22,887 nucleotides of DNA, from UHGV virus genome UHGV-0306720; one strand, written 5' to 3'. The notes below the pieces were generated by a model that was not told the DNA's origin, did not search any database, and saw nothing but the letters and a program-made list of their open reading frames with translations. Position 1 is the stretch's first letter. Each line of letters opens with the position of its first letter. The stretch comes from a virus. The position numbers and the translations under genes were made by a program. This document shows, one piece after another, positions 9,516 to 18,605 of this stretch.

Positions 9516-11267
9516 ATGATTCAGGACGCTTTTGTGCGCCAGCGTGCGCGGCAACTTTACTGGCAGGGGTATCCGCCCGCAGAAATATCACGTCTGATGG
9601 GAATAAACCCGAACACGATTTATGCGTGGAAAAAACGCGACCAGTGGGATGAAACACCACCCGTGCAGCGTGTTACGCAGTCCATCGATGCGCGCCTCAT
9701 CCAGCTTACTGAAAAACAGAATAAAACAGGCGGTGACTTTAAGGAAATAGACCTGCTGACCCGGCAGCTTAAAAAGCTGCATGATGGCCAGCCGGATGTG
9801 ATGACCGCAGGAAAGAAAGGCCGGGCGAAAAAACTCAAAAATCATTTCACGCCGGAACAGATTGCCGCACTGCGGGAAAAAATCATCAGCAGGCTGGAGT
9901 GGCATCAGCGGGGCTGGTTTGACTCCCTGACCCTTTGCAGGGAAGCCGGGATACGTAACAGGATGATCCTGAAATCCCGACAGATTGGGGCGACCTGGTA
10001 TTTTGCACAGGAAGCTCTGCTGATGGCGCTGCGTGACGATGTGGCGCAACCTTACCAGCGTAACCAGATTTTTTTGTCTGCGTCGCGTCGTCAGGCGTTC
10101 CAGTTTAAAAGCATTATTCAGAAGGCCGCGGCTGAAGTTGATGTGGAGCTGAAAGGGGGCGATAAAATCATCCTCTCCAACGGCGCAGAGCTGCATTTTC
10201 TCGGCACTTCTGCTGCGTCGGCACAGTCCTATACGGGCAATTTTTATTTTGATGAATTTTTCTGGGTCAGTCGCTTTGCTGAACTGCGCAAGGTGGCTGG
10301 CGCTATGGCAACCCTCAGCGGACTGCGGCGCACCTACTTCTCCACGCCATCCACCGAAACGCACGAGGCATACGCCTACTGGAACGGCGACCGCTGGAAC
10401 GAGAAAAAGGCCTCGCATAAACGCCAGCGTTTTTCTGTGGACTGGAAAACGCTGCATAACGGGCTTATCTGCCCTGACCGGACGTGGCGGCAAATTGTCA
10501 CGCTGGAAGATGTGGTTAATCACGGCTGGAAACACACCGATATCGACGAAATTCGTGATGAAAACACCGAAGACGAGTTCCTCAATCTCTATATGTGTGA
10601 GTTTGTCCGCGAAGGGGAATCGGCATTTAACCTGAATATCCTGATTGGCTGCGGTGTTGACGGATACGACGACTGGAAAGACTGGAAACCTTTTGCTCCC
10701 CGCCCGATGGGGAATCGTCCGGTATGGATTGGGTATGACGCAAACGGCAGTAGTGGCAACGGCGACAGCGGCGCTGTGTCCGTGGTGGTTCCTCCGGCTG
10801 TTCCTGGTGGCCGTTTTCGAACGGTGGAGACGCGACGCGTTCAGGGGCTGGAGTTTGAAGAACAGGCCAGAGTCATTGAAGAGTTCACGTATCGCTACAA
10901 CGTGGAACACATCGGCATTGATGTGACGGGCGGGAACGGGGAGGCTGTTTATCAGATAGTGAAGCGGTTTTTCCCTGCTGCTATTCCGTACACCTTCACG
11001 CTGTCATCAAAACGGTCGCTGGTACTGAAAATGCTGCAAATAATGCGTGCCGGGCGGTGGGAATACGATCGCGCCGAACGCGAGCTGGTCGCGGCCTTTA
11101 ACGCCGTGCGTAAGGTGAAAACACCGGGCGGCTTTATCACTTACGAAACGGACCGAGCGAGGGGGATCAGCCACGGCGACCTTGCGTGGGCAACCATGCT
11201 TGCTGTCATTAACGAACCGATTGGCGGCGAAGGAGAAAACGAGCGTTTCACGGTTATGGAGTTCTGA
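9516..11267 (+). CDS. P: Terminase large (ATPase) subunit gpP-like
   Basis: 583 aa; N-terminal HTH-like segment (YPPAEISRLMGINPNTIYAWKKR); SD GGGGGAG before the ATG; TGATG overlap with Q. Confidence 0.9.
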   Translation: MIQDAFVRQRARQLYWQGYPPAEISRLMGINPNTIYAWKKRDQWDETPPVQRVTQSIDARLIQLTEKQNKTGGDFKEIDLLTRQLKKLHDGQPDVMTAGKKGRAKKLKNHFTPEQIAALREKIISRLEWHQRGWFDSLTLCREAGIRNRMILKSRQIGATWYFAQEALLMALRDDVAQPYQRNQIFLSASRRQAFQFKSIIQKAAAEVDVELKGGDKIILSNGAELHFLGTSAASAQSYTGNFYFDEFFWVSRFAELRKVAGAMATLSGLRRTYFSTPSTETHEAYAYWNGDRWNEKKASHKRQRFSVDWKTLHNGLICPDRTWRQIVTLEDVVNHGWKHTDIDEIRDENTEDEFLNLYMCEFVREGESAFNLNILIGCGVDGYDDWKDWKPFAPRPMGNRPVWIGYDANGSSGNGDSGAVSVVVPPAVPGGRFRTVETRRVQGLEFEEQARVIEEFTYRYNVEHIGIDVTGGNGEAVYQIVKRFFPAAIPYTFTLSSKRSLVLKMLQIMRAGRWEYDRAERELVAAFNAVRKVKTPGGFITYETDRARGISHGDLAWATMLAVINEPIGGEGENERFTVMEF

Positions 11268-12313
11268 TGAGCAGAAAAAATAAAAAAGTGCGCATGAGTT
11301 CACGCATTGATCTCGCTGATGCGCTCAGGAAAGAATCATCGCTCAGTGCATTCACATTTGATGGTCCTTATCGCCTGACCGGGCATGACCTGCTGGACAA
11401 TATGTACTGTGCTGATAACGGGCGGTGGTATGAAACCCCGGTGGACTGGTACGGTCTGGCAAGAGCAGCCCGGCAAACGTCCTGGCATCAGTCTGCGCTT
11501 TACTTTAAGCGCAATGTATTACTCGGTTGCTACATCCCGCACCCGCTGCTTTCCCGGCAGGATTTCTCGGCGCTGGCGCTGGACTGGTTTGTGTTCGGTA
11601 ACGCATTCCTTGAGCTTCGAAGCAATATGCTCGGCGAACCGCTTAAATTACGGCACGCACTGGCGAAATACATGCGACGCGGAAGCGATCTTGAATCATG
11701 GTGGTATGTGCAGGATGGCAAGGACGCGTTCCAGTTTCGCCCTGGCAAAGTGTGCCACCTGATGAATCCGGACATTAACCAGGAAATTTATGGCATGCCG
11801 GAATATCTCGGCGCATTACTCTCGGCCAGCCTGTCTCATTCGGCGGACATGTTCAGAAAACTGTATTACGACAATGGATCCCACGCCGGGTGCATCATCT
11901 ACATCGGTGCAGCGCAGGTAAACCGCGAAAGCATGGACTCCCTGAAAGAAACGTTACAGGGTGCGCGTGGTGGTGGCGCGTTTAAAAACGTGCTCATCCA
12001 TGCGCCCAACGGGGGCAAAGAGGGGGTGCAAATTTTGCCGTTCCAGCAGATCACCGCAAAGGATGAGTTCATGAATGTTAAGGCGGCATCCCGTGATGAT
12101 GTGCTGGCTGCGCACCGCGTTCCGCCGCAACTGATGGGGGCGATGCCGGGCGAAAAAAGTGCGTTTGGTGATGTGGAGAAGGCCGCGCGGGTTTACGCAA
12201 TTAACGAGCTGATGCCCGTCATGGAGGCCATGAAGCACATCAATGACTGGCTTGGCGAAGAGGTGATCCGCTTTAACCCTTACGCACTGTTAGACACCCA
12301 GCCCACATCCTGA
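11267..12313 (+). CDS. Q: Portal protein gpQ-like
   Basis: 348 aa, close to the P2 Q length, coupled to P, last gene before the cos region. Confidence 0.85.
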   Translation: MSRKNKKVRMSSRIDLADALRKESSLSAFTFDGPYRLTGHDLLDNMYCADNGRWYETPVDWYGLARAARQTSWHQSALYFKRNVLLGCYIPHPLLSRQDFSALALDWFVFGNAFLELRSNMLGEPLKLRHALAKYMRRGSDLESWWYVQDGKDAFQFRPGKVCHLMNPDINQEIYGMPEYLGALLSASLSHSADMFRKLYYDNGSHAGCIIYIGAAQVNRESMDSLKETLQGARGGGAFKNVLIHAPNGGKEGVQILPFQQITAKDEFMNVKAASRDDVLAAHRVPPQLMGAMPGEKSAFGDVEKAARVYAINELMPVMEAMKHINDWLGEEVIRFNPYALLDTQPTS

Positions 12314-12770
12314 CGCGCTTCGCTTGTCTGCTGCTTCGCCGGGGCATAAAAAATTTATGCCCCGGCTCTCCAGCTCCTGTATCAGTCAGATAATTTCACG
12401 ACGCTTTCCTGCTGATTGCCATCATCGACAGTCAGACTCTTACGCAATCCCACCGCGTTGACTGCATGTTCTCGCCGTCTCAGTGCGATTTTGACGGCCT
12501 TACCTTTCACCCCATCAAATCAAAAGCCCTCACGTCTTTTTCACGCTCAGCGTGAGAAAGACAGCCATTCTGTTGTGTCGCTGCGACATCGTTCAGGGGA
12601 TGCTATTTACCCCCTGAAACGCGGGCTGTTCCCCCGTCACCTGCGCGCAGAAAAAACGCGTTTTTTTGTGCACGTACGGATCCCTGACGGATCCAGCCAC
12701 CACGCGGGCCGGAAGTACAAAAAGTCGTTCAAAAAAATTGTGCAAACTTGTGCACTATCGTGCAAACAAA
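12314..12770. other. Presumed cos/packaging region (joined cohesive ends); exact cos site not identified
   Basis: Non-coding stretch right after the portal gene where P2 has cos. Perfect 10-bp-arm hairpin at 12341-12363, palindromes at 12534-12562, 12592-12618 and 12649-12668, direct repeats ACGGATCC x2 (12676-12694) and TGTGCA-type repeats (12738-12767). Confidence 0.4.
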
Positions 12771-12792
12771 AAAAGCGCCTTATCGGCGCTTC
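12764..12792 (-). terminator. Rho-independent terminator downstream of the 89-aa ORF
   Basis: AGCGCC-TTATC-GGCGCT hairpin; plus-strand A7 immediately upstream gives a U7 tract after the hairpin on the minus strand. Confidence 0.55.
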
Positions 12793-12799
12793 AAAAGTA

Positions 12800-13069
12800 T
12801 CAATTGTTGCTGTGTATTAATCGCCAACCACGAACATATGCTTCATAGGCATCTCTGTGCCTTACAGTTCCAGCCTGGCTAAACGGAATGTTAGCTAAAA
12901 CTAAATCATTCTGAGCCATAGCGCGTCCTTCAAGCGCATCTTTTATGCCTAGCTCAAAAGCACAGGCAGCGCATTTGTGCCGACCTTCTTGTCCTTGATA
13001 TTCAGGGAGAGACAGAAATGTTGGATTATAACGATGAGGGTTCTTGCAAATACCTGTTTTAGCCCGCAC
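12800..13069 (-). CDS. Hypothetical 89-aa protein with Cys/His cluster (GTG start)
   Basis: ORF in the AT-rich island with its own terminator; motif C-x4-H...H-K-C-A-A-C suggests metal binding. SD-like GAGGT 9 nt before the GTG. No family recognised. Confidence 0.35.
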   Translation of the reverse strand: MRAKTGICKNPHRYNPTFLSLPEYQGQEGRHKCAACAFELGIKDALEGRAMAQNDLVLANIPFSQAGTVRHRDAYEAYVRGWRLIHSNN

Positions 13070-13199
13070 TTTATTTACCTCATAGGAAAAATATGCGTGC
13101 CTTTACAGAGGTGCGTGTAAGCAATAAAATATACGACGCACATTTTGATTTACTTCGGAAGGCACGCATATCAGGTTAAGTGAGTCCGACCGAGTTTTA

Positions 13200-13232
13200 C
13201 GCCCCAATAGTTGCTGCTATTGGGGCGTTTTG
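13200..13232 (+). terminator. Hairpin with 11-bp perfect stem followed by TTTTG
   Basis: CGCCCCAATAG-TTGCTG-CTATTGGGGCG then TTTTG on the plus strand, just downstream of the 28-codon plus-strand ORF. Confidence 0.5.
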
Positions 13233-13433
13233 CATGGACAATGCCGCGCAATTATCTTGTCGCTCACAATGCGAACGATCTTACAAAAAGGCACATTACT
13301 GTCAAGATAATTGATCGTTTTAATCGATAGATAATAGACAATCTATTTGTTTAACAGATCGATTATTGAAGTAAGTGTGCCAAATGGAATGATACTGTCT
13401 CTATAAACGTGAGCATTTTTCGCGCAGATGCTT

Positions 13434-13745
13434 TTACTCAGGAAATAACGCCCGGATATTCCCAGCCATCTGGCTGGTTATCTTAGCCACTGGTGCAGAC
13501 TGTGCTTCAAACTTTTTTGAGCTGATTTGTGTCACAGGTAACATCTCATCATCAGCCCATGCGGCCAGTCGGTAAGCCTCTGCCGGATTCGTCTTCAGAA
13601 GTGCCAGCCCGGCCAGAAAAGCCACGCGTTGGCCGCTTTTGCGGGCTTCTGGTGTAAGGCTGTCCAGCCAAGCGCATGCTTCTCCTTCGTTCTTGACGGC
13701 AGCTGGCTTCAGATAGAAACTTATTCTTCTGGTTGGTGTCGTCAT
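13434..13745 (-). CDS. parR: ParR/StbB-like partition adaptor (103 aa)
   Basis: RRISFYLKPAAVKNEGEACAWLDSLTPEARKSGQRVAFLAGLALL resembles the plasmid R1 ParR N-terminal region as recalled. Begins 4 nt after the parM-like stop with SD AAGGAG. Confidence 0.7.
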   Translation of the reverse strand: MTTPTRRISFYLKPAAVKNEGEACAWLDSLTPEARKSGQRVAFLAGLALLKTNPAEAYRLAAWADDEMLPVTQISSKKFEAQSAPVAKITSQMAGNIRALFPE

Positions 13746-13749
13746 TGGT

Positions 13750-14709
13750 TTACTCCTTGTTCATTGCGTACAGCCCATTAACCAGAGCAAATTGTGGCCC
13801 CCCGTCCGCGATGAAAGTCGCATTAACTCCGCAGGCTTCGCGGATAGCGGGTGCCACAATCTCCGCCCCGCCACCGACAACCATCACCCGCCCGTAACCC
13901 GAAAAAACCGCCAGCGCGCGGATCACGCGTTGTTTCAGTGTTTCTTCCTTTTCACGAATAACCGCCATCAGGCTGGCGTAATGCGCGTCATTGTGGATGT
14001 GCTGGCGCAGCCAGGCTTCATCATGGCGATGTTCGATAATGGTATTGGCGATGTGGTGACTGGTGCGCATACCGTTAGTGGCCATCACCGACAGTACGGC
14101 ATCGGCCATAAGAGAAACGCCTACGTGTGGATCGCAAAACACCTGGCTGATACCTGCCAGTTGCCCCTGAACCTTTGCCACATCCAGCGTGGTTCCGCCC
14201 AAATCCACAATCAACAGGGATTCAAACGGACTCATGTCAGCCAGTGCCTTAAAGCCAGCCGGAATGGATTCAGGCATAACCCGTACGTTACGGATAGTGA
14301 ATGCTTCGCCGTTCTGGTACTCCACCGGGCGCATGACGTTCGCTTTTTTGCGGTTGATGTTGGCCATGTCCGGCTGTGCGTTTGTATCGAAATACTCGCT
14401 CAGTGGCAGGGTGACAACCACATCCACTTCCTGTGGTGTGATGCCTGATTTGACCAGCGCGTGATGAATGGCAATTACATTCACATCGCTGTACTGGTAT
14501 TGCGTGTCGGTCGTCTGGACAAAGCGATCGCTGACCGGATCAAAACCATAGCGCACGCCATCAAGCATGTAGTTCGCGGGCTGCGTGCCACCGAATGGCG
14601 CAGACCATTCCGACTTGAAGCTGTTCGGGCTGATGGCGTTGCGGCGTTCGCCGTTCTCAGTCCATGCCAGCTTGATGTTGGTGGAGCCGTCGTCGATACA
14701 AATTTTCAT
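13750..14709 (-). CDS. parM: Actin-like segregation ATPase, ParM/StbA family (319 aa)
   Basis: MKICIDDGSTNIKLAW, YSDVNVIAIHHAL, VMPESIPAG, LIVDLGGTTLDV and VMVVGGGAEI are the actin-fold motifs and resemble plasmid R1 ParM/StbA along the whole length, as recalled. Confidence 0.85.
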   Translation of the reverse strand: MKICIDDGSTNIKLAWTENGERRNAISPNSFKSEWSAPFGGTQPANYMLDGVRYGFDPVSDRFVQTTDTQYQYSDVNVIAIHHALVKSGITPQEVDVVVTLPLSEYFDTNAQPDMANINRKKANVMRPVEYQNGEAFTIRNVRVMPESIPAGFKALADMSPFESLLIVDLGGTTLDVAKVQGQLAGISQVFCDPHVGVSLMADAVLSVMATNGMRTSHHIANTIIEHRHDEAWLRQHIHNDAHYASLMAVIREKEETLKQRVIRALAVFSGYGRVMVVGGGAEIVAPAIREACGVNATFIADGGPQFALVNGLYAMNKE

Positions 14710-14744
14710 GTCGCTTTTCCTTATGTTGATTAATTAATCGGTTA

Positions 14745-14852
14745 CAGGATTTTTAAATCCCGCTTTTGCCTGTTTTGTGCGCGCTTCATATATCGCGGCG
14801 CGTTTTTTGCTCATTTACGGGATTTGTGAGTCCCGTTTCTGTCTGTTTTTTG
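14745..14852. repeat. Two ~35-bp imperfect direct repeats (27/35 identical), each with an internal dyad, 73 bp apart
   Basis: CAGGATTTTTAAATCCCGCTTTTGCCTGTTTTGTG (14745-14779) versus CGGGATTTGTGAGTCCCGTTTCTGTCTGTTTTTTG (14818-14852). The first lies between the A stop and the parM start; the second lies within the last codons of A. Confidence 0.6.
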
Positions 14853-17608
14853 TTTCCACTGGTCAGGCCACCCCGCAGCAGGTCTGCTTTGCGGCTGGCG
14901 CGTTCAGTGGTTTCACTGATTCTCTGTGCGTGCTCTGCGTCGCGGATGGCGCGCAGCATGTCAGAAAGCACGGTAACGGGTGTTTTCATGGTGTTCTGGT
15001 CCTGCTGAAGTGTGGATGCCAGGCGTGCGGCGGCTTCAGGGTCTGATGCCCCCAGCTGTGCCAGATAGCTGGCGACCGGGTTATGGCGGATCTCCGTGCT
15101 GCTTACGCCATGATTACGGCTCAGGCGCTGCCAGAGCTGCGTGATTCGGCTGTCCGGGCGGGTATCCGGTTTGCGTACAATTTCAAATCCCTGCGGTGCA
15201 ATGATGCTGCCGTCAACGTACAGACTGCCGCCCCGTAACAGGTGCTGCATCTGTTGTTCACCGATATGCAGGCCGAGAGATTCAGCAGACTCCCGCCATT
15301 CTTTAGCGAGTAATTCGTGGTTATCAGGCAAAGGCCGCTGCTGTTTGCGGCTCTGTGTCCAGCTCTGCATTTCATCACTGCTGTTTTTTGCCTGTTTGTC
15401 ACGAAGCGAACGCATCAGCGCCCGGCGTTCGTGCCGTTTCAGTGAGCGCATCCATTCGTTCACGTCAACGCCGTCAGGAAGCTGCGGCCACGGTGCTGGC
15501 CGTTCTTCCGGCTGTTCTGTCCCGTTGTTGTCCGTTTCCTGTACACGGGGACAGTTATTGCCACGAGTCCAAGGGGCGGCAGGGCCGCCCTGAAGGTCAA
15601 AACCATTTTCGCGGGCGCTGTCTTCCGCTTCCGGTTTGCGTCTTACCAGCTTCCAGTTATCCGGATGCGTGCACACACGGGAGGATTCCCCGATGAGTGG
15701 CGACCAGATCCCGTAAATCTGTACGCTCTGTTCGCCGTAATCGTTCAGCTCATCTGCGAGGTCGTAGGCGGTGCGAATCAGGTAGTCTTTGCGTGGAACA
15801 AGTACGCCGCCCTGTTTCTCTATGTAGGTGGCAAAACATCCGGCATCAGCGGCAGCAAGAACCGCATCCATTGCGTCATCCTTCAGCCGTTGCGGGCCTT
15901 CGGGGTTGCGTGCCATCTGGCTGGCAAGGCGACGCAGTTCACGCCACACCTGACGGGAGGGGATACCAAAGAACTGGAACTGGCGGACCCGGTGAAGGCG
16001 CGCCCAGCCGATGGCGCGTTCCACGCTCTCGGCCATTGATTTTCCGGTTTCGTGGTCAACGCGTGGTTTGCCCGTTTTCGGGTCGATGCCATCCACGGCG
16101 CGGCTGTCCAGGTTCTTTCCGATGTAGGTGGCGATGTAGCTGGTTGGCGTGCCTTTTGAGCCGTCGACATACTCCACCTTAAAGCGCGGAGTAATATCAT
16201 TGCCCAGCTCGTGGCGGTCTTCCTGAATGGCAATATCGCGGGTGATGGCCACGATGCTGTCGATTTCTTCCGGATGAGCAAAGACCATCATATGCCAGTG
16301 CACGGTGCCGTCATGGTGAGGCTCCACCGTGCGGATGCCATACCAGCGCAGGCCGTCGCGGTTCAGTTTCTTGCGGACCGCCGCAAAAAACGTGTTAACC
16401 AGGTAATCGCTGGAGTCGCGCATGGTGGCCCCGTTCCATTTGGGGTTCGGATGACCGTTCTCCGTTGTTGCGTGGTATTTTGACGGGCAGGTGACAGTCA
16501 GAAACACCGCTCTGTCGCCACGGGCTTCGGCCAGAAGTTCCAGTCCCTTCATGGTGGCCATCATTTCTGCCTTACGGTGAACCGGGTTACTTACTCCCGC
16601 GTAATACACTGTCTCGAGATCAATCGTGAAGCCGTCTTCGTTTTCCAGTTCGAAGCTCTTCAGGAAGTCGCGGGTTTTCTCGCGCTGTGCGCGAAACTCG
16701 CTTAACGCGTCCTGGCTCAGATAGGGTGATGTTTTTCTGGAAACCAGACAGGCGGCGCGGAGTTGTTCTTCTCTCCACTCGCAACGTAACAGCCACAGTT
16801 TGCGTTTCCACCATTCCGCACAGGTCAGGCGAAGGATTGCGCCCGGCAGCAGCTCCGTGTCCGGTTCGTTCCTCCGGTCTTTGTCTGTTGTCAGTGCGTC
16901 ATAATGTGGAGGCATGGCGTGCAGGTGTAACGCCATGCGGGCCAGCATCTGATACGCCTTCAGCGTTACATCCATGGTCAGTTCGCCATCAGTCGCGCCA
17001 AAGCCATCGCAGAGTTTTTCGAAGGTGCTGCTGAACATCGCCGCCGTCATGGTGGCCAGCGTCTGTATCTGGTGCTTGTTGAGCTGCGGCAGGTAAAGCA
17101 AATCATCCAGGCGTTCGCGTCCGGCAAGGGAGCGATAACCCGGTGTCAGCCAGCGGTGGTCGGTGCGGTCCAGACGTTCGAATATTTTGCGCAGGGTTCC
17201 GCGCGCGTAGCGTTCAGCCTGCCAGCTCTTTTTGCCTTTCCGGCGATCGACTTCCTGTTTTTTGCGCAGGAAGGAGAGGTGGCGAATAAGCGGATCGCGC
17301 AGATAGGACGGCAGCAGGCGCAGCGAGGCCATGGCTTCATCCACCGCGCCGCGTGCCTGTTTTCTGGCGTCTCCTGCCAGTGTGATGGTTTTGTCCTGTT
17401 TTTCCTGTGCATCCAGGCTTTTATTAATCAGGTTGCCCAGCGGCGTGGCGGAGAACGCCGCATCAGCCATTTCCTGGCGGCGCTCGTTCTCTGCCCGGTA
17501 GGCATCCAGCCAGGAGGAAAGCGCAGATTCAGGAACGGGGATCCCCGTTCCTTCACGTCCCACTGCGTGGCGCGGTTGTTGCCAGTCCCTGATGTACTCT
17601 GCCGTCAT
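14786..17608 (-). CDS. A: Replication initiation endonuclease gpA-like (HUH rolling-circle initiator), 940 aa
   Basis: HUH motif in VHWHMMVFAHPEE; large last gene of the early operon as in P2; ATG confirmed. Confidence 0.8.
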   Translation of the reverse strand: MTAEYIRDWQQPRHAVGREGTGIPVPESALSSWLDAYRAENERRQEMADAAFSATPLGNLINKSLDAQEKQDKTITLAGDARKQARGAVDEAMASLRLLPSYLRDPLIRHLSFLRKKQEVDRRKGKKSWQAERYARGTLRKIFERLDRTDHRWLTPGYRSLAGRERLDDLLYLPQLNKHQIQTLATMTAAMFSSTFEKLCDGFGATDGELTMDVTLKAYQMLARMALHLHAMPPHYDALTTDKDRRNEPDTELLPGAILRLTCAEWWKRKLWLLRCEWREEQLRAACLVSRKTSPYLSQDALSEFRAQREKTRDFLKSFELENEDGFTIDLETVYYAGVSNPVHRKAEMMATMKGLELLAEARGDRAVFLTVTCPSKYHATTENGHPNPKWNGATMRDSSDYLVNTFFAAVRKKLNRDGLRWYGIRTVEPHHDGTVHWHMMVFAHPEEIDSIVAITRDIAIQEDRHELGNDITPRFKVEYVDGSKGTPTSYIATYIGKNLDSRAVDGIDPKTGKPRVDHETGKSMAESVERAIGWARLHRVRQFQFFGIPSRQVWRELRRLASQMARNPEGPQRLKDDAMDAVLAAADAGCFATYIEKQGGVLVPRKDYLIRTAYDLADELNDYGEQSVQIYGIWSPLIGESSRVCTHPDNWKLVRRKPEAEDSARENGFDLQGGPAAPWTRGNNCPRVQETDNNGTEQPEERPAPWPQLPDGVDVNEWMRSLKRHERRALMRSLRDKQAKNSSDEMQSWTQSRKQQRPLPDNHELLAKEWRESAESLGLHIGEQQMQHLLRGGSLYVDGSIIAPQGFEIVRKPDTRPDSRITQLWQRLSRNHGVSSTEIRHNPVASYLAQLGASDPEAAARLASTLQQDQNTMKTPVTVLSDMLRAIRDAEHAQRISETTERASRKADLLRGGLTSGNKKQTETGLTNPVNEQKTRRDI

Positions 17609-18283: not shown

Positions 18284-18457
18284 GGTGTGGCCTCTTTGCT
18301 AGTAAGTTTTAAAAACTCACCATCCAGAGGTTCCAAGCTCGGGGTGGTGAGACGTACAGGGTTGGAACTACCGGCTAGCAAAGAACCCGGCCCGACCGAA
18401 GTCGGCCCCATACGCCCCACCATAATTCGTGTGCGAAAAAGACGTGGCGATACGGTA

Positions 18458-18488
18458 CGCACAAAAAAACCGCTGGCGCGGTTGTGCG
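18458..18488 (-). terminator. Nested hairpin followed by a U7 tract on the minus strand, inside the early-operon gap
   Basis: CGCACAA...ACCGC-TGGC-GCGGT...TTGTGCG; the plus-strand A7 run becomes U7 after the stem on the minus strand. Confidence 0.4.
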
Positions 18489-18605
18489 CTTTGCTAGTCA
18501 GCGGGGTTCCAATCCCGGCACCCGTTTTATGAGGTGCAGCGGAAATGTAACCTGACTGATTGCGGCATGGCAAGCGGTTTTTTTGTGTGTGCATGTTCTG
18601 GTTTC

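Follow-up and report, generated by a model that had tools for sequence, protein, structure and literature searches.

What is the role of an AT-rich, non-coding segment that directly follows the partition genes of a phage? We addressed this question for positions 13233-13433 of the virus genome UHGV-0306720, which was analyzed over its full 22,887 nt (hereafter, the window) and was identified as a P88-like E. coli prophage (Xuanwuvirus, Peduoviridae; P2 family). The segment lies between the parR stop codon and a possible plus-strand terminator. The initial annotation of this DNA, made from the sequence alone, had read its symmetric sites as a protein-binding locus: an alternative centromere for the ParM/ParR pair, an operator for a neighboring gene, or a recombination scar at the boundary of phage cargo. 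Our results assign the segment to a cargo cassette, in which it probably provides the promoter and the upstream operator for one of the hotspot genes, an uncharacterized open reading frame (ORF) of 89 amino acids (aa).

Boundaries of the cargo cassette

The segment belongs to the cargo and not to the partition system. Similarity of the window to the phages P88, Shae_phiSM, and Chuche stops on the left at 12764-12783 and resumes on the right exactly at 13434, with a parR that is ~87% identical. In all three phages, the parR stop codon TAA (13436-13434 in the window) is kept, the sequences diverge from the very next base, and the slot occupied here by 12784-13433 holds unrelated genes. The cassette defined in this way measures 650 bp and contains the AT-rich segment. 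Among 5426 complete E. coli genomes, 166 had it intact, as one unit and with 95-100% identity; carriers include the lysogen ETEC H10407 (NC_017633.1:2141198-2141398). Genomes with the cassette plus its flanks also numbered 166, which suggests a single context for all copies. Of the partial, diverged matches, the few examined occupied the same slot in related prophages, and a search of a plasmid collection with the cassette returned no similarity. The slot itself, cos-proximal and reaching from the replication gene to the portal/cos side (gpA-gpQ), is a known variable hotspot of P2-like phages (PMC9122126; PMC13586616). In one genome (NZ_CM166350.1, strain CH4793, hit H42), the cassette was interrupted by an IS1X4 insertion and was otherwise 100% identical.

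The alignment to related P2-like prophages, proposed at the outset as a check, thus placed the cargo boundary at the right edge of the segment (13433/13434) and not within it. The suggestion of a scar marking this boundary found no support in that form: 13372-13233 looks like functional cargo interior, and only 13373-13433 behaves as a variable junction.

Probable promoter and upstream operator block

A consensus scan of 12300-14900 returned a single minus-strand promoter match, the sigma-70-like TTGACA-16-TAAGAT at 13305-13278 (10 of 12 consensus positions). It is oriented toward the 89-aa ORF and lies 208 nt before the GTG start. Judging from the position of this promoter, transcription would start near 13271 (+/-2) and read leftwards. 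As a consensus match alone is weak evidence, with no more sites than in shuffled sequence, comparative tests were made.

A sensitive search with the 201-bp segment alone yielded partial matches of 79-81% identity in other P88-like prophages. Two loci, L164 (NZ_OZ474909.1, 1695-2745) and L165 (NZ_CP128926.1), carry a diverged allele of the cassette in the same slot, with an unannotated homologue (MGIKICKNSHRYNP...) of the 89-aa gene followed by a 95-aa gene (PHROG 33929). In L164, an Ogr/Delta-like zinc-finger gene adjoins the portal gene. The conservation between the alleles is distributed very unevenly (Table 1). All three GATC sites of the segment are kept in L164 and L165. Across the four sequence variants that represent the two alleles, TTGACA and TTTTGTA(A/G)GATCG are constant and the first half of the spacer is variable. 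Hexamers and spacer length that are kept while the spacer sequence is free give the pattern that a real promoter would be expected to show. Pattern scans of IMG/VR and metagenomes for further alleles of the control region recovered the same two alleles only.

The 67-bp block upstream of the promoter contains two 15-bp near-palindromes of the form ATCnnTTwAAnnGAT, which are present in both alleles and have centers 31 bp, or three helical turns, apart. The distal one (O1) is a perfect 15-bp palindrome in L164/L165 (ATCTGTTAAACAGAT), and the proximal one (O2) is identical in both alleles. Between them lies a central dyad whose arms are conserved across alleles while its spacer has been replaced. 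Further upstream, the junction of L164/L165 has a G8..C9 hairpin or a short spacer in place of the weak hairpin found in the window. The kind of element is ordinary and known; what stands out is that the GATC-bearing palindromes are unusually well conserved. From these patterns we infer that a factor may bind at O1/O2 and that Dam methylation may modulate the operator.

Shuffled sequences gave some measure of how readily such an arrangement arises. A promoter matching at least 10 of 12 positions with a leader of 170-220 nt occurred in 1.5% of shuffles of the 364-nt upstream region, and in none of 3000 shuffles when a GATC at the offset typical of the protein family (see below) was also demanded, the criteria (10/12, leader length, and GATC offset) having been picked after the data were seen.

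The proposal of an operator for a neighboring gene was thus borne out with respect to a footprinted sigma-70-like promoter leading into the 89-aa ORF and a conserved dyad block upstream of it, but the feature that had been stressed most, a perfect 11-bp inverted repeat, is absent from the diverged allele. At most, this repeat is an allele-specific, accessory operator pair.

We propose that a self-contained cargo cassette ("moron") lies between the cos-side backbone and the parR stop codon, with the segment acting as its transcriptional control region. RNA polymerase would initiate at TTGACA-16-TAAGAT to give a transcript consisting of a structured leader of ~200 nt, the 89-aa ORF, and the terminator at 12772-12792. 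A dimeric DNA-binding protein, which could be a product of the host, the prophage, or the cargo, would occupy O1/O2 in the zone of the alpha subunit C-terminal domain and the upstream (UP) element, and would activate or repress the promoter. The methylation state of the GATCs in the operator and at the -10 hexamer would modulate either this binding or the strength of the promoter.

Table 1. Coordinates of features in the window, with identity to the diverged cassette allele (L164/L165) where compared
Feature	Position	Strand	Identity, L164/L165 versus window	Remarks
Variable junction, parR stop to control region	13373-13433	-	16-46% or unalignable, large insertions	Weak hairpin AGCAT..ATGCT (~13406-13432)
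Upstream block (67 bp)	13372-13306		81-82%	
O1, distal near-palindrome	13345-13359			Minus strand reads ATCTGTTAAACAAAT; center ~-81; outer edge overlaps GATC 13357-13360
Central dyad	13326-13347			ATAGAT (13327-13332)/ATCTAT (13341-13346); center ~-65
O2, proximal near-palindrome	13314-13328			Plus strand reads ATCGTTTTAATCGAT; center ~-50; promoter-side edge overlaps GATC 13313-13316
11-bp repeat, right arm	13303-13313			Overlaps first -35 bases; center ~-37
-35 hexamer TTGACA	13300-13305	-	100%	Invariant in all four sequence variants of two alleles
Promoter spacer			56-62%	Length 16 kept
-10/GATC block			92%	
-10 hexamer TAAGAT	13278-13283	-		TAGGAT in other allele; overlapped by GATC 13277-13280
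Initial transcribed region	13270-13233		39%	
11-bp repeat, left arm	13249-13259			~+12 to +22 of predicted transcript
Hairpin	13233-13197		86%	Flanks 28-39%
Structured leader of cargo ORF	13070-13271	-		~200 nt
Coding sequence			57-58%	
Cargo ORF, 89 aa	12800-13069	-		GTG start; PHROG 3941, function unknown
Cargo cassette terminator, intrinsic	12772-12792	-		From scan; closes cassette 3' of 89-aa ORF
Terminase	9516-11267	+		
Portal	11267-12313	+		
parR	13434-13745	-		Pfam Plasmid_stab_B, 9.8e-24
parM	13750-14709	-		
Replication endonuclease	14786-17608	-		

Composition and symmetry of the segment

The features listed in the initial annotation were recovered when the sequence was inspected. GC content was 0.30-0.36 across 13250-13450 compared to ~0.5-0.6 in the flanks. 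The segment is non-coding: the minus strand has no ORF of at least 30 aa, and the plus strand has two unsupported ORFs of 39 and 44 aa with TTG/GTG starts. The GATC sites start at 13277, 13313, and 13357. The perfect 11-bp inverted repeat consists of CAATTATCTTG (13249-13259) and CAAGATAATTG (13303-13313) with 43 nt between the arms, and in the palindrome pair TAATCGAT/ATCGATTA, TAATCGAT is located at 13321-13328 on the plus strand and its complement at 13358-13365.

Describing the segment as dyad-dense overall was not justified, as it folded no better than shuffled sequences (z = -1.3 for DNA; z = +0.25 for RNA of the upstream part). Of 2000 dinucleotide-shuffled versions of the segment, 26 (1.3%) contained a perfect inverted repeat of at least 11 bp. 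The whole window contains 10 such repeats compared to 0.6 expected, and the 11-bp repeat, which falls in the shortest class among these ten, could still be a chance event. Three or more GATC sites were found in 7.8% of the segment shuffles, so that the GATC count alone is not significant. Since folding equals that of shuffles, the GATC count is not significant, and ~0.6 repeats are expected per window, the density of symmetric sites carries little weight. Occurrences of the 11-bp motif elsewhere in the window were at chance level, and a search of 12760-13450 against Rfam 15 gave no match even at E <= 10, save sub-threshold hairpin matches outside the segment. Conservation, and not symmetry statistics, gives the best evidence that parts of the segment are important.

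Homologous loci in other genera

An exhaustive search with the 89-aa protein identified 172 cluster representatives at E <= 0.001, compared to only two near-identical clusters in a word-indexed search. We fetched 11 loci from Providencia, Proteus, Gilliamella, Pantoea, and E. whittamii on the basis of protein similarity. These loci have 336-801 bp of ORF-free DNA upstream of the gene and a promoter 177-194 nt before the start codon. In all 11, a GATC precedes the end of the -10 hexamer by 36-40 nt; the corresponding offset in the window is exactly -39. A GATC at -3 (TAGGATC/TAAGATC) is common to the window and locus L056. Loci L120-L162 were retrieved by a pattern that itself contains GATC and were left out of the offset count. 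Among 44 matches to the promoter pattern in IMG/VR, 18 sit just upstream of a family member.

A different upstream region of ~400 nt, conserved among its bearers, was observed in Klebsiella, Citrobacter, Buttiauxella, and Dryocola (L058, L060, L061, L070, L078, and L102). It retains a hairpin with a CGCCAA loop and GATC(N3-4)GTAAAC before the start codon, and may be a second variant of the leader.

Evaluation of the promoter-operator assignment and its alternatives

Several results weigh against reading the segment as a promoter and operator. In the scanned region, two consensus promoter matches were found compared to 2.5 expected from shuffles. The footprint rests on two deep alleles, and mosaic recombination, instead of selection, could in principle account for its short conserved blocks. 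The 11-bp repeat lacks conservation: 64-73% of the right arm and 27% of the left arm (unalignable) are identical in L164/L165, no compensating repeat is present, and the conserved bases of the right arm belong to CAAT and TTG motifs. The motif ATCNNTTNAANNGAT does not recur above chance elsewhere in the 22.9-kb window. O1 and O2 had no convincing match when compared by eye, with no formal test, to the literature consensus sequences of LexA, CRP, IHF, Fur, OxyR, ArcA, and Ogr/Delta (TGT-N12-ACA). Finally, nhmmer profiles of the promoter region and leader of the relatives from other genera gave no match at the window locus. Because these profile searches detect no sequence homology of the window promoter or leader, the link across genera is only architectural, consisting of the arrangement, the GATC offsets, and one hairpin (E ~0.01).

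Some of these points fit other explanations of the segment. One is that a repressor uses the 11-bp repeat as the main operator, binding half-sites at ~-37 and +18 (54 bp apart) and looping out or occluding the promoter, with the upstream palindromes being secondary. The rarity of a perfect repeat in segment shuffles (1.3%) speaks for it, as do the arms themselves, which bracket both hexamers and the start site and lie on about the same face of the helix. Even so, we consider this unlikely: both arms are lost in the diverged allele without a compensating repeat, the motif is absent elsewhere in the window, and no equivalent bracket was seen by eye in the relatives from other genera, on which no repeat search was run. 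It is also rather improbable that the segment is a non-functional AT-rich spacer or a scar of cargo exchange with symmetric sites arising by chance in low-complexity DNA. Folding no better than shuffles, at least three GATCs in 7.8% of shuffles, ~0.6 perfect 11-bp repeats per window expected by chance, and the lack of conservation of the 11-bp repeat and of 13373-13433 in the other allele are all compatible with a spacer or scar. Such DNA, however, would not be expected to keep 13372-13306 and the hexamers at 81-100% identity next to a coding sequence at 57% and a spacer at 56-62%, to exchange the spacer of the central dyad but not its arms, or to have GATC offsets matching those of homologous loci in other genera. 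The end of a mobile element, a miniature inverted-repeat transposable element, and an att scar were considered separately and rejected, given that the 11-bp motif is unique in the window, all full-length copies lie in the 166 genomes with the same flanking DNA, to judge from the matching counts, and no plasmid matched.

The conserved block could instead act as RNA, on transcripts coming from parMR or an unrecognized upstream start, where it would act in termination, insulation, or processing or would belong to a longer leader; the 11-bp arms could then form a stem enclosing the promoter-like sequence. parMR indeed points in the same direction as the cassette, and parR is not followed by a consensus terminator: in a scan of the minus strand of 13373-13433, no intrinsic terminator was found, and the only stem present was AGCAT/ATGCT (5 bp, loop of 11 nt). 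In addition, O1 would form a small hairpin and the 11-bp arms an 11-bp stem. Yet RNA 13300-13433 folds no better than shuffles (z = +0.25), a mismatch weakens the O1 hairpin in the window, the 11-bp arms are not conserved, and the combination of kept hexamers and spacer length with a free spacer sequence is that of a promoter, which makes an RNA-level role very unlikely. Least probable is that the segment is an alternative or additional parC-like centromere, bound by ParR and used by ParM for segregation of the phage genome. It directly adjoins parR, it has several dyads, and O2 (CGATTAAAACGATCAA) loosely resembles a perfect palindrome upstream of parM (CGATTAATTAATCAA). In P88, Shae_phiSM, and Chuche, however, parR and parM are present without the DNA of the segment, similarity being lost at the parR stop codon; what accompanies the segment is the 89-aa gene and not parMR. 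No iteron array was found in 13233-13433, only two 2-copy direct repeats of 9-10 nt, and CGATTAA, present seven times, is scattered over the window at chance level. We therefore rejected the centromere put forward in the initial annotation: relatives with ~87% identical parR and near-identical DNA upstream of parM have unrelated sequence after the parR stop codon, and repeats and palindromes are found upstream of parM, in the canonical position, in all of them.

As the ParR operator or centromere, the repeats at 14728-14852 upstream of parM are the better candidates. A 38-nt direct repeat (14742-14779/14815-14852) overlaps the end of the replication gene, each copy containing a GGGATTT..AAATCCC palindrome, and a perfect 12-bp palindrome (GATTAATTAATC) is located at 14728-14739. 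Both are kept in P88, Shae_phiSM, and Chuche.

Structured leader and possible antisense RNA

The predicted promoter is followed by a leader with considerable potential for structure. RNA 13060-13272 of the minus strand has a minimum free energy of -71.4 kcal/mol (z = -4.5 versus shuffles). The leader contains a GC hairpin, P1 (13199-13228), a conserved TGTAAAG motif, and a Shine-Dalgarno sequence GAGGU paired with ACCU. It also has a perfect 13-bp stem (13091-13103/13159-13171) with a 55-nt loop, whose 3' arm includes part of TGTAAAG; in L164/L165, this long hairpin is replaced by a shorter sequence.

The relatives from Pantoea, E. whittamii, Providencia, Proteus, and Gilliamella share a conserved five-helix leader of 177-194 nt. 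In the alignment of these leaders, 89% of cells were paired and compensatory changes were found in 15 of 35 pairs compared to 5.5 in shuffles (0 of 500 reached 15), counts that are biased toward structure as the alignment was fitted to the model. Slid controls of the same alignment gave far lower counts. At the gathering score, Rfam 15 did not match the leader in six related loci, and we therefore regard it as a candidate new cis-regulatory RNA motif. A covariance model of the clade-A leader (R1) finds Providencia-type leaders with E ~1e-5. Within 12000-14500 of the window, its best match was P1 at 13200-13230 on the minus strand (9.1 bits, E ~0.01); P1 was all that R1 detected there, which falls short of homology over the whole leader.

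The plus-strand terminator that the initial annotation placed next to the segment is present as a sequence, a perfect 12-bp hairpin followed by TTTT (13199-13232, plus strand); the P1 hairpin may be either an element of the sense leader or the terminator of an antisense RNA. A promoter-like site, TTTACA-17-TAAAAT, is located on the plus strand at 13102-13130, its -35 hexamer being the reverse of TGTAAAG, which is conserved family-wide. The L164 allele has TTTACA-17-TACGAT at this site, which is thus partly conserved. Together with the hairpin and T-run at 13199-13232, the site could produce an antisense RNA of ~95 nt against the leader. In two P1 stems of clade A, a C.A pairing on the gene strand would be G.U on the opposite strand.

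This arrangement recalls phage accessory genes under antisense control (P22 sar/ant and hok/sok-type leaders) through its long structured leader, its opposite-strand promoter-like site, and a hairpin with a T-run. The P1 hairpin also has weak, sub-threshold Rfam matches to sar and ctRNA. The differences are that these scores are far below gathering, that the antisense promoter is only partly conserved, and that the likeness concerns DNA adjoining the segment and not the segment itself.

Cargo protein

The structure of the 89-aa protein was predicted confidently by AlphaFold (pLDDT 91.5). It has no recognizable DNA-binding fold, and no match was found to folds in PDB or BFVD or to models in Pfam, NCBIfam, or PADLOC. 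The family of 172 cluster representatives is characterized by conserved C8, H12, C33, and C36 and by a duplicated SQ(G/A)GxxRHK motif. The same Cys/His, SQ(G/A)GxxRHK domain also occurs fused to NOV_C (DUF3883), DGQHR/DndB, and WYL proteins.

Comparison with known systems

The cassette is most readily compared with the gpA-gpQ hotspot morons of P2-like phages, such as P2 old and tin (Rousset et al. 2022, PMC9122126). It shares with them the slot, from the replication side to the portal/cos side, the autonomous order of promoter, gene, and terminator, and the presence of unrelated cargo with sharp junctions in sister phages. It differs in that the P88-like lineage has parMR between gpA and the hotspot, in that the cargo protein lacks a PADLOC, Pfam, or NCBIfam match, so that a defense role is only a possibility, and in its unusually long structured leader.

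With respect to parC of the type II ParMRC system of plasmid R1, the segment is alike in adjoining a ParM/ParR pair, in being AT-rich, and in having symmetric sites. Unlike parC, it is located downstream of parR and not upstream of parM, has no iteron array, and is absent from relatives with the same parMR.

Promoters that are sensitive to Dam, or at which Dam and a regulator compete, include pIN of the IS10 transposase and the phase-variable promoters of pap, agn43, opvAB (PMC4652898), and phage gtr. The segment resembles such promoters in that a GATC overlies the -10 hexamer, GATCs are embedded in upstream dyads, and GATC positions are conserved across alleles and, for one of them, across genera. 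It differs from them in having only three GATCs and no match by eye to an OxyR, Lrp, or Fur consensus. Judged by its sequence, the promoter may respond to Dam methylation. A methylome paper on 95NR1, a strain with the cassette, does not mention the locus.

The annotation of the region is clarified in that the DNA after parR is cargo and its boundary is the parR stop codon. The segment itself is a compact, footprinted candidate promoter-operator. The usual practice is to clone hotspot cargo genes "with their native promoter" and without knowledge of their control (PMC13586616); few inputs to the regulation of such cargo have been defined, and a conserved, GATC-studded operator would be one of them. 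The greater value may lie in what adjoins the segment: a widespread family of small proteins without a Pfam, NCBIfam, or PDB match and a conserved structured leader absent from Rfam. Both are undescribed and of more interest than the segment.

It appears doubtful, though worth stating, that an undescribed module for regulation in the antiviral hotspot is made up of the control region, the leader, and the 89-aa Cys/His protein. If so, the promoter would read the Dam state of the three GATCs and either fire on unmethylated or hemimethylated, fresh or incoming DNA or be phase-variable, and the conserved leader, as a new RNA motif maybe opposed by an antisense RNA, would gate translation. The fusions of the protein domain to NOV_C nucleases and to DGQHR/DndB and WYL proteins would then suggest a new defense or counter-defense function.

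Other observations in the window

Two further features were observed outside the cassette. Three direct repeats of (T)TGTGCA(A/C), spaced by 10 bp, are located at 12737-12767 in conserved backbone immediately left of the cargo junction, near the presumed cos. In the early region, on the minus strand of 18340-18537, a C4 antisense RNA (18340-18427) lies beside isrK (18463-18537), both scoring above the Rfam gathering threshold.

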